Source: Eledone cirrhosa (taxonomy: Eukaryota). Taken from it: DNA of 64,000 bases. This document shows, in pieces, positions 38,467-42,156 of this stretch (its first letter is position 1; every line of letters starts with the position of its first letter). Below the pieces are notes generated by a model that ran no database searches, was not told the origin of the DNA, and was given only the letters and a program-made list of their open reading frames with translations. Location: positions 201,190,001-201,254,000 of the forward strand of contig OZ024741.1 of assembly GCA_964016885.1 (NCBI GenBank), written 5' to 3'. The position numbers and the translations under genes are program-made.

Positions 38467-40190
38467 GTGAATATAGACATAGAATATTCGAAAATATTCT
38501 GTATGTTTATAATAAACATTTTGAAGACCTAATCGCTATAGAATAGAATACGTCACGTATTACAATTAGATTCTCGATAAAAGCAAGGGAAGTAATCTAC
38601 GCGTTTCATTCTTGTTAGAATTCATCAGGACTACATATCCAGTGCTTTTATCGAGAATGACACAGCTAGAGACTTATAGGATACTTAGCTGTGTACAGGA
38701 ACTGGTTTGAAAGAGCGGTTGCCGGTCCGGCAGAAATTAGAAATTGGAATAAATGCTCTGAAATAGCGATATATAAGTGAATATAGACATAGAATATTCG
38801 AAAATATTCTGTATGTTTATAATAAACATTTTGAAGACCTAATCGCTATAGAATAGAATACGTCACGTATTACAATTAGATTCTCGATAAAAGCAAGGGA
38901 AGTAATCTACGCGTTTCATTCTTGTTAGAATTCATCAGGACTACATATCCAGTGCTTTTATCGAGAATGACACAGCTAGAGACTTATAGGATACTTAGCT
39001 GTGTACAGGAACTGGTTTGAAAGAGCGGTTGCCGGTCCGGCAGAAATTAGAAATTGGAATAAATGCTCTGAAATAGCGATATATAAGTGAATATAGACAT
39101 AGAATATTCGAAAATATTCTGTATGTTTATAATAAACATTTTGAAGACCTAATCGCTATAGAATAGAATACGTCACGTATTACAATTAGATTCTCGATAA
39201 AAGCAAGGGAAGTAATCTACGCGTTTCATTCTTGTTAGAATTCATCAGGACTACATATCCAGTGCTTTTATCGAGAATGACACAGCTAGAGACTTATAGG
39301 ATACTTAGCTGTGTACAGGAACTGGTTTGAAAGAGCGGTTGCCGGTCCGGCAGAAATTAGAAATTGGAATAAATGCTCTGAAATAGCGATATATAAGTGA
39401 ATATAGACATAGAATATTCGAAAATATTCTGTATGTTTATAATAAACATTTTGAAGACCTAATCGCTATAGAATAGAATACGTCACGTATTACAATTAGA
39501 TTCTCGATAAAAGCAAGGGAAGTAATCTACGCGTTTCATTCTTGTTAGAATTCATCAGGACTACATATCCAGTGCTTTTATCGAGAATGACACAGCTAGA
39601 GACTTATAGGATACTTAGCTGTGTACAGGAACTGGTTTGAAAGAGCGGTTGCCGGTCCGGCAGAAATTAGAAATTGGAATAAATGCTCTGAAATAGCGAT
39701 ATATAAGTGAATATAGACATAGAATATTCGAAAATATTCTGTATGTTTATAATAAACATTTTGAAGACCTAATCGCTATAGAATAGAATACGTCACGTAT
39801 TACAATTAGATTCTCGATAAAAGCAAGGGAAGTAATCTACGCGTTTCATTCTTGTTAGAATTCATCAGGACTACATATCCAGTGCTTTTATCGAGAATGA
39901 CACAGCTAGAGACTTATAGGATACTTAGCTGTGTACAGGAACTGGTTTGAAAGAGCGGTTGCCGGTCCGGCAGAAATTAGAAATTGGAATAAATGCTCTG
40001 AAATAGCGATATATAAGTGAATATAGACATAGAATATTCGAAAATATTCTGTATGTTTATAATAAACATTTTGAAGACCTAATCGCTATAGAATAGAATA
40101 CGTCACGTATTACAATTAGATTCTCGATAAAAGCAAGGGAAGTAATCTACGCGTTTCATTCTTGTTAGAATTCATCAGGACTACATATCC
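38467..40190 (-). mobile_element. Hammerhead-ribozyme tandem array (retrozyme-like), left arm, ~5.6 x 310-bp units
   Basis: GTGAATATAGAC recurs at 38467, 38777, 39087, 39397, 39707 and 40017 (period 310). Each unit has a minus-strand hammerhead at 38592-38634 + n*310 (6 copies). The left end abuts (TA)n. Confidence 0.9.
38592..38634 (-). ncRNA. Minimal type I hammerhead ribozyme (representative; further - copies start at 38902, 39212, 39522, 39832, 40142)
   Basis: Exact reverse complement of the 40405-40447 motif. Confidence 0.93.
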
Positions 40191-42156
40191 TAGCGATTAG
40201 GTCTTCAAAATGTTTATTATAAACATACAGAATATTTTCGAATATTCTATGTCTATATTCACTTATATATCGCTATTTCAGAGCATTTATTCCAATTTCT
40301 AATTTCTGCCGGACCGGCAACCGCTCTTTCAAACCAGTTCCTGTACACAGCTAAGTATCCTATAAGTCTCTAGCTGTGTCATTCTCGATAAAAGCACTGG
40401 ATATGTAGTCCTGATGAATTCTAACAAGAATGAAACGCGTAGATTACTTCCCTTGCTTTTATCGAGAATCTAATTGTAATACGTGACGTATTCTATTCTA
40501 TAGCGATTAGGTCTTCAAAATGTTTATTATAAACATACAGAATATTTTCGAATATTCTATGTCTATATTCACTTATATATCGCTATTTCAGAGCATTTAT
40601 TCCAATTTCTAATTTCTGCCGGACCGGCAACCGCTCTTTCAAACCAGTTCCTGTACACAGCTAAGTATCCTATAAGTCTCTAGCTGTGTCATTCTCGATA
40701 AAAGCACTGGATATGTAGTCCTGATGAATTCTAACAAGAATGAAACGCGTAGATTACTTCCCTTGCTTTTATCGAGAATCTAATTGTAATACGTGACGTA
40801 TTCTATTCTATAGCGATTAGGTCTTCAAAATGTTTATTATAAACATACAGAATATTTTCGAATATTCTATGTCTATATTCACTTATATATCGCTATTTCA
40901 GAGCATTTATTCCAATTTCTAATTTCTGCCGGACCGGCAACCGCTCTTTCAAACCAGTTCCTGTACACAGCTAAGTATCCTATAAGTCTCTAGCTGTGTC
41001 ATTCTCGATAAAAGCACTGGATATGTAGTCCTGATGAATTCTAACAAGAATGAAACGCGTAGATTACTTCCCTTGCTTTTATCGAGAATCTAATTGTAAT
41101 ACGTGACGTATTCTATTCTATAGCGATTAGGTCTTCAAAATGTTTATTATAAACATACAGAATATTTTCGAATATTCTATGTCTATATTCACTTATATAT
41201 CGCTATTTCAGAGCATTTATTCCAATTTCTAATTTCTGCCGGACCGGCAACCGCTCTTTCAAACCAGTTCCTGTACACAGCTAAGTATCCTATAAGTCTC
41301 TAGCTGTGTCATTCTCGATAAAAGCACTGGATATGTAGTCCTGATGAATTCTAACAAGAATGAAACGCGTAGATTACTTCCCTTGCTTTTATCGAGAATC
41401 TAATTGTAATACGTGACGTATTCTATTCTATAGCGATTAGGTCTTCAAAATGTTTATTATAAACATACAGAATATTTTCGAATATTCTATGTCTATATTC
41501 ACTTATATATCGCTATTTCAGAGCATTTATTCCAATTTCTAATTTCTGCCGGACCGGCAACCGCTCTTTCAAACCAGTTCCTGTACACAGCTAAGTATCC
41601 TATAAGTCTCTAGCTGTGTCATTCTCGATAAAAGCACTGGATATGTAGTCCTGATGAATTCTAACAAGAATGAAACGCGTAGATTACTTCCCTTGCTTTT
41701 ATCGAGAATCTAATTGTAATACGTGACGTATTCTATTCTATAGCGATTAGGTCTTCAAAATGTTTATTATAAACATACAGAATATTTTCGAATATTCTAT
41801 GTCTATATTCACTTATATATCGCTATTTCAGAGCATTTATTCCAATTTCTAATTTCTGCCGGACCGGCAACCGCTCTTTCAAACCAGTTCCTGTACACAG
41901 CTAAGTATCCTATAAGTCTCTAGCTGTGTCATTCTCGATAAAAGCACTGGATATGTAGTCCTGATGAATTCTAACAAGAATGAAACGCGTAGATTACTTC
42001 CCTTGCTTTTATCGAGAATCTAATTGTAATACGTGACGTATTCTATTCTATAGCGATTAGGTCTTCAAAATGTTTATTATAAACATACAGAATATTTTCG
42101 AATATTCTATGTCTATATTCACTTATATATCGCTATTTCAGAGCATTTATTCCAAT
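40191..42156 (+). mobile_element. Hammerhead-ribozyme tandem array (retrozyme-like), right arm, ~6.3 x 310-bp units, inverted relative to the left arm
   Basis: TAGCGATTAGG recurs at 40191, 40501, 40811, 41121, 41431, 41741 and 42051. The unit is the reverse complement of the left-arm unit. The right end abuts (TA)n. Confidence 0.9.
40405..40447 (+). ncRNA. Minimal type I hammerhead ribozyme (representative; further + copies start at 40715, 41025, 41335, 41645, 41955)
   Basis: P1 GTAGTC / CTGATGA core / P2 ATTCT-AACA-AGAAT / GAAA / palindromic P3 (A)CGCG(T) / GTA cleavage triplet (cut after 40441) / P1' GATTAC. All catalytic-core nucleotides are canonical. Confidence 0.93.

Follow-up and report, generated by a model that had tools for sequence, protein, structure and literature searches.

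How does a ribozyme-bearing repeat that encodes no protein enter new sites in an animal genome, and from what kind of RNA is it copied? Both questions are raised by an array of hammerhead ribozymes at positions 38467–42156 of a 64,000-nt stretch of the Eledone cirrhosa genome (assembly GCA_964016885.1, contig OZ024741.1, positions 201,190,001–201,254,000; the window hereafter). Animal retrozymes, the elements to which this array belongs, are known to make circular RNAs, and the mobilising enzyme and the use of the circle as template are the questions that this family addresses. Penelope-like elements (PLEs) have been called "a strong candidate" for mobilising animal retrozymes (PMC7229834), the mobilisation mechanism is asked for in 10.64898/2026.07.22.740005, and PMC8557442 lists the way in which PLE inverted repeats and tails arise as unresolved. 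We report here that the array and its relatives carry the marks of PLE integration and that the uniformity of their units is consistent with copying of a single monomer, most simply a circle.

The array consists of 12 identical type I hammerheads in 310-bp non-coding units, six per strand, arranged as two divergent arms. The left arm (38467–40190, − strand, 5.6 units) runs leftwards in RNA sense from unit position 209 to a short end at about 72, which is unresolvable within 72–80 because the unit itself reads ATATATAT there, while the right arm (40191–42156, + strand, 6.3 units) finishes at a long end, unit position 106. The arms meet 5′-5′ (head-to-head) at 40190/40191, unit positions 209/1, without a spacer, and both reproduce the reference unit (40191–40500, + strand; 34–35% GC) with zero mismatches across 3,690 bp. 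Mismatches to the unit are first met at 38466 and 42157, both inside (TA)n; the insertion is embedded in a (TA)n tract (38377–38466 on the left, 42157–42393 on the right), and the flanking sequence is unlike on the two sides. Short and long ends are separated by about 34 nt, unit positions 73–106, present at the right end only (42123–42156, + strand) and corresponding to the "tail" as defined in PMC3846280, PMC8557442 and PMC11167929.

The six + strand hammerhead cores lie at 40405–41997 (starts 40405 + n*310, predicted cut after 40441 + n*310) and the six − strand cores at 38592–40184 (starts 40184 − n*310, predicted cut after 40148 − n*310). With its 16-bp helix I extension, in which 40381–40396 pairs with 40454–40469, the first + strand hammerhead covers 40381–40469. 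The units contain no open reading frame (ORF) of 100 aa, and the element lacks an ORF carrying a reverse transcriptase (RT, also used here for reverse transcription) or GIY-YIG endonuclease, unlike autonomous PLEs. The original prediction, made from the bare sequence, had described twelve hammerheads in 310-bp units; its coordinates proved exact, with 12/12 motifs intact, although its heading, an array of twelve hammerheads, left the two inverted arms, the most informative feature, unmentioned. Its claim of very recent activity agrees with the lack of any substitution in the 3,690 bp.

The asymmetry of the two ends recurs across the family. Loci were sampled both as best matches and in positional order on contig 1, part of the last positional set being taken from the matches to the core type found in the window, and the sampled arrays number about 30 out of more than 1,000 inserts. 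Inserts of this family (family A) longer than 150 bp comprise 35 two-armed and five one-armed copies and one at a contig edge. Among two-armed loci with both ends readable, 32 of 34 pair one short end (unit 67–80) with one long end (95–114), as do 21/22 in the position-ordered samples; the exceptions are L034/L109 (88/80) and L051 (90/105), and L101 (71/95) is borderline. This count leaves out L045 (<150 bp), the second insert of L099 (right end beyond the fetched sequence), L035 (contig edge), the five one-armed inserts and L107 (no family-A match). Divergent neighbours less than 20 kb apart in the first 218 Mb of contig 1, for which 81 long and 100 short ends were listed, pair long with short in 53/53 cases, with no long+long and no short+short pair (p 6e-17); the other 75 ends had no listed partner, as exact patterns would predict. 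A sister family with 320-bp units follows the rule in 7/7 readable two-armed inserts, and its copy at L046 has two long ends but lies within a larger palindrome that takes in its flanks.

Most loci are flanked by (TA)n, and three non-microsatellite sites, L044, L096 and L101, show target duplications of 11, 15 and 12 bp, respectively; at the window locus a duplication is unresolvable. The inner junctions between arms mostly show overlaps of 1–7 nt, and two loci with unlike haplotypes, L063 and L096, use the identical junction 191/264 via the unit's 16-nt inverted repeat. At L052 (2542–3046) the junction region is doubled (-/+/-/+), with the joint 6/280 present twice.

An inverted, 5′-truncated copy together with a 30–40-bp tail at one end is the signature described for PLEs (PMC3846280, PMC8557442), and Frangieh et al. 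report that, on AT-rich DNA, a PLE protein from Anolis cleaves each strand and extends it, beginning RT at two internal RNA sites that bound a 30–40-nt tail (PMC11167929). As described in these three sources, endonuclease-bearing (EN+) PLEs (Penelope/Poseidon, Neptune) share with the present element the head-to-head inverted copy and one-end tail, AT-rich/(TA)n targets with duplications of about 10 bp, and a hammerhead that lies upstream of the two internal positions at which RT begins. They differ in that the retrozyme has no ORF, that the whole element is the repeat and that both arms are multimeric, reaching 27 units; moreover, the tail is called "optional" or "often" present in EN+ PLEs, whereas almost all two-armed copies of the retrozyme have it at one end and one end only. 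On these features a PLE very probably made the insertion. The original prediction had drawn PLE mobilisation from the type of ribozyme, and the integration signature (end rule and target duplications) now supports it. There is also a good probability that both target strands were cut, that RT started at two fixed internal sites and that the converging cDNAs were joined head-to-head. In L1 twin priming, two target-derived primers on one RNA produce an inversion with a microhomology joint, the first primer acting at poly(A) and the second at variable internal sites; by comparison, the retrozyme has two fixed start sites, separated by about 34 nt, and each of its products is a multimer.

The units also bear on the RNA that was copied. 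The two arms of one insert share the founding haplotype in 20 cases and differ in four, L109 among them, where single-unit changes or a shift in the alignment account for the difference. In 8/30 arrays of at least three units, a variant unique among the sampled arrays is fixed in all units of both arms (the window array, L092, L096, the second L099 array, L100, L101, L103 and L105); a uniform, unsampled parent is a possible source of such private variants, and a monomer step would be needed there too. Across 23 arrays and 220 units, only 2/33 minority variants are common to both arms, both in L109, and the other 22 arrays share none. Inner ends fall within 3 nt of the cut site in 1/68 cases, about the chance level, and the arms pass over cut sites without scars. 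The long-end arm is longer in 20/31 loci and shorter in 11/31, by up to 26 units, with no significant correlation between arm lengths (rho 0.30, p 0.10) and no significant excess in length of long-end arms (p 0.06); the longest array noted has 27 units (L097). We consider it fairly likely that the template was one 310-nt monomer, most simply a hammerhead-made circle, which each RT would have rounded several times, so that both arms became multimers of one haplotype. The rolling RT of a circle put forward in the original prediction thus has indirect support from haplotype uniformity, although L034/L109 argues for a multimeric template.

A generic core pattern with matching spacing gave 12 matches in the window (12 copies of one motif) versus 0.04 expected by chance. 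An Rfam scan of the window returned no match at the gathering score, and an E-value search gave a Hammerhead_HH9 (clan CL00010) match with E 0.003, whose score of 23 bits falls short of the model's cut-off of 52; Hammerhead_1, the model proposed earlier as a check, was not listed among the matches, the motif being undetected by it. The motif had been called "minimal", a label that must be replaced: it is a canonical short-helix-III type I hammerhead, and the helix-III-less PLE motif was rejected on the evidence of a helix III with 2 bp and a 2-nt loop. The unit folds more stably than shuffled sequences (z −5.09). In the predicted circular monomer, pair probabilities are 0.93–1.0 for helix I and 0.85–0.93 for helix II and the 16-bp helix I extension is formed, while the 2-bp helix III stays unformed. 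Two motifs are predicted to co-fold through the palindrome ACGCGU into a 6-bp intermolecular helix III (−25.1 vs 2 x −8.6 kcal/mol), and two unit motifs could form a double hammerhead in this manner. The core is invariant except for N7 in 13 variants, and many copies have a U.U at the base of helix II, matching axolotl HHR_Amex2. Variants that hit the core or break a helix make up 0/21 of locus-wide changes versus 11/40 of single-unit changes (Fisher p 0.011; p 0.044 with the helix II U.U included), the single-unit count holding a few changes twice since L034 and L109 are one duplicated locus. On these variant counts, the ribozyme is under purifying selection.

Together these results can be read as one series of events. 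Tandem transcripts would be cut by double hammerheads through the palindromic helix III and the monomers closed by a host ligase activity, in the manner described for other retrozymes (PMC7229834, PMC4209133), giving a 310-nt template, most simply a circle. A PLE RT/GIY-YIG endonuclease supplied in trans would then insert the retrozyme at (TA)n or AT-rich DNA by cutting both target strands, and each 3′ end would prime RT within the RNA, one starting at unit position ~72–80 and the other at ~106. The two cDNAs would extend toward each other and be joined, mostly via short microhomology, into head-to-head arms. Taken as a whole, a single, very recent, non-autonomous insertion of this kind, with a PLE acting in trans from two primers on a 310-nt monomer, is likely. 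A more specific form, twin rolling-circle target-primed RT, in which a PLE dimer works on one 310-nt circle and each subunit primes one strand at its own fixed site, has in our judgement somewhat below an even chance.

Several observations weigh against this series of events. At L034/L109, a block of eight units that holds a 773-bp foreign insert is repeated, and two minority variants are present in both arms, which suggests that a heterogeneous multimer served as template there or that the block was duplicated later; L040 carries period-2 duplications made after insertion, and five sampled inserts are single-armed. The Anolis protein, when assayed in vitro, did not favour either strand for a given start site and accepted RNA that had not been cleaved, and mutants of the ribozyme were still inserted (PMC11167929). 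Nor can the efficient dimer cleavage invoked in the original prediction be assumed, since only 1/9 Xenopus dimers cleaved in vitro (10.64898/2026.07.22.740005). The hammerhead alignment contains no two-sided compensatory change, and its shuffle control was uninformative. Finally, BLAST, motif and nhmmer searches of 20 PLE loci and the rest of the window turned up no autonomous PLE homologous to the unit (best nhmmer match E 0.004, TA-driven), and the candidate partner described below has a tail of 70 nt versus 34 nt in the retrozyme.

Some of these points fit a different template, namely an uncleaved linear multimer transcribed from a parent array and copied by the same PLE from the same two primers, with the ribozyme acting elsewhere and the arrays homogenised or extended later. 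Long parent arrays such as that of L097 exist, the Anolis PLE takes unprocessed RNA in vitro (PMC11167929), inner ends without a pile-up at the cut site also suit an uncleaved template, and at L034/L109 the insert-bearing block and its shared minority variants look like a copied multimer. The copying of linear parents should, however, shorten arrays and spread mosaics, whereas new variants are fixed throughout both arms in 8/30 arrays and 22/23 arrays have no minority variant common to both; moreover, homogenisation is slow, because single-unit mutations persist. We regard a linear multimer as unlikely, though as the most probable of the rivals.

If instead a single primer was used, the first cDNA folding back or an antisense template priming itself, the second arm would be a copy of the first, and resolution by the endonuclease would leave the tail. 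Such a model has been proposed for PLE palindromic junctions (PMC3846280) and accounts for the common haplotype, the junction microhomology and the inverted arms, but a fold-back copy cannot outgrow its template, yet either arm may be the longer one, by as many as 26 units, and later in vitro work has demonstrated priming on both strands at the limits of the tail (PMC11167929); we judge it improbable. An ordinary satellite, in which unequal exchange expanded a short remnant of a PLE and the ribozyme is a passenger, is a model discussed in 10.64898/2026.07.22.740005 and would be in keeping with the local duplications in L040 and L097. It is very improbable, given that the inserts are dispersed, number more than 1,000 and have fixed ends, that target duplications occur, that the window locus has twelve hammerhead-bearing units without mutation and that the ribozyme is under purifying selection. 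A spacer-less, perfect 1.7-kb inverted repeat is also the typical shape of a fold-back long read, but the flanks are unlike, the arms end at different fixed sites, the junctions are asymmetric and target duplications are present, so that an assembly artefact is scarcely credible.

The preferred reading, a PLE-made insertion of a retrozyme copied from a monomer, applies to a large family. In the 3.0-Gb genome, whose microsatellite load would suit an octopod cephalopod, the hammerhead core pattern has 12,573 matches and the window's exact core 3,747 (reversed controls 0), and exact patterns for the end junctions with TA occur 1,051 times for the long and 1,256 times for the short end; the dispersed copies expected by the original prediction are thus borne out by the core matches and by more than 1,000 junctions per end type. 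Judged by its sequence, the element is a non-LTR retrozyme (LTR, long terminal repeat) of a large young family, an assignment made without a dedicated search for a primer-binding site or polypurine tract, and its sequence likewise fits a PLE-made insertion. A plant-type LTR retrozyme, with type III hammerheads, two LTRs and a 4-bp target duplication, was ruled out by the type I motif, the tandem units and the duplications of 11–15 bp.

Like the metazoan non-LTR retrozymes described in PMC7229834 and 10.64898/2026.07.22.740005, the family has a low-GC, non-coding tandem unit with one type I hammerhead each, a short palindromic helix III, thousands of copies and PLEs in the same genome; it differs from them in its two divergent multimeric arms, fixed unequal ends and (TA)n setting. 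The link between retrozymes and PLEs in the published accounts consists of co-occurrence and homology to PLE pseudo-LTRs (pLTRs), whereas here it consists of an integration signature, no homologous pLTR having been found in the 20 PLE loci and the window. No description of a two-armed, one-tail architecture for retrozymes was found in the literature searched, subscription papers and supplements being largely outside its scope; the word "inverted" is missing from the main text of PMC7229834, and in 10.64898/2026.07.22.740005 "tail" does not occur and "inverted" occurs once, in a reference title. Chlamys elements of green algae such as MRC1 are likewise non-autonomous PLE passengers with multicopy head-to-tail insertions; as described in PMC8557442, they lack canonical hammerheads and have a 3′ end like that of their autonomous partners, in which the retrozyme differs.

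The sister 320-bp family (L047 1650–9670, L048 4816–5340, L062, L063 1241–1773) shares unit positions 1–153 at 75–80%, including both end sites. A 19-mer common to the two families has 21,203 genome matches (reversed control 0). The sister hammerhead differs, with a U3/A8 core and a 12-nt palindromic helix III; a U3-A8 variant is described in PMC4209133. Hammerhead inserts of only about 70 nt, with a helix II like that of the retrozyme family, were also seen in TA tracts (L038, L042 6110–6180, L046, L055, L062, L076).

Where the enzyme might come from was addressed by a GIY-YIG search, in which the best 150 of 10,595 candidates were scored. It uncovered a young PLE family that has an RT domain, a GIY-YIG domain and, ahead of the nuclease, a CxxxxCxxC motif; we call it Neptune-like on the description in PMC8557442 and not on a tree. 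All 150 of the best 150 matches are 98–100% identical, 37 hold a 775-aa frame, and among 21 copies read, 12/12 with both ends visible have one short and one long end in TA, the same end rule as in the retrozyme. The family is a candidate partner only, because of its 70-nt tail and the lack of detectable sequence in common with the retrozyme. Its copies L071 and L118–L133 carry a U3/A8 hammerhead and two overlapping frames, one of 409 aa and one of 775 aa; a slippery site, U UUU UUA, stands in −1 phase in 15/16 fetched copies, which were selected for the 775-aa frame; a frameshifted ORF1 is a listed option for PLEs (PMC8557442 Fig. 1).

The retrozyme belongs to an established type of element, and its form exposes how it integrates, the shape of its ends showing the class of enzyme and suggesting circle copying. 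The family offers more than 1,000 near-identical insertions, a strict end rule and haplotypes that trace single templates, and two defined priming sites on a 310-nt RNA together with a young candidate PLE protein in the genome make the model testable in vitro. If the twin rolling-circle form is true, PLE tails and inverted repeats would follow from an obligatory one-site-per-strand rule, the family would provide direct genomic evidence for ribozyme-made circular RNAs as transposition intermediates in animals, and the carrier would be a PLE without detectable sequence homology to the retrozyme. Spacer-less long palindromes spread across the genome could also be a source of double-stranded RNA and instability.

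At least half of the unit's sampled words are also carried by 20 sequencing runs under 18 organism codes; no RNA run was listed among the holders, which speaks neither for nor against expression. Assembly of four of them (X1, X3, X6, X16) gave, in three of them, a 340-nt contig identical to the 310-nt unit in closed form and, in the fourth, a contig of 280 nt that spans the join between units; the four are 99% alike, have a depth of 5–34 and lack flanks, and such contigs do not distinguish a circle from tandem copies. Trace carry-over of so abundant a repeat (3,747 exact core copies) explains them as well as horizontal transfer does, and therefore no conclusion is drawn. A metagenome scan for the unit gave seven matches, each only 19–28 nt alike, which were taken as chance.

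Other mobile sequences were noted around the array and its relatives. The 773-bp insert of L034 (2170–2942 and 5424–6196) lies at unit position 191/192, starts with TC, ends with CTAG and has a 3′ hairpin; it contains a 37-bp repeat also found at window positions 55248–55465, and we take it to be Helitron-like. A second hammerhead-like motif, with a palindromic ATATATAT helix III, lies just upstream of the array at 38272–38330 (+ strand), within a short element that has TA tracts on either side. The PLE relics in the window itself are older than the retrozyme and have no sequence relationship to it. One, a decayed Neptune-like PLE at 19452–22717, has RT fragments, a GIY-YIG region at 21536–22150 and an inverted terminal copy, and belongs to an older family with 15,974 first-look candidates and 82–96% amino acid identity among the matches listed. 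Another PLE 3′ end, at 58448–59580, combines a Zn-finger and GIY-YIG-like frame with a hammerhead-like core near 59440 and has relatives in L060 and L061. A further frame, at 23071–24336 and 12187–12504 beside (TACA)n, has no Pfam match and resembles in motif the C-terminus of a non-LTR retrotransposon with a restriction-like endonuclease.

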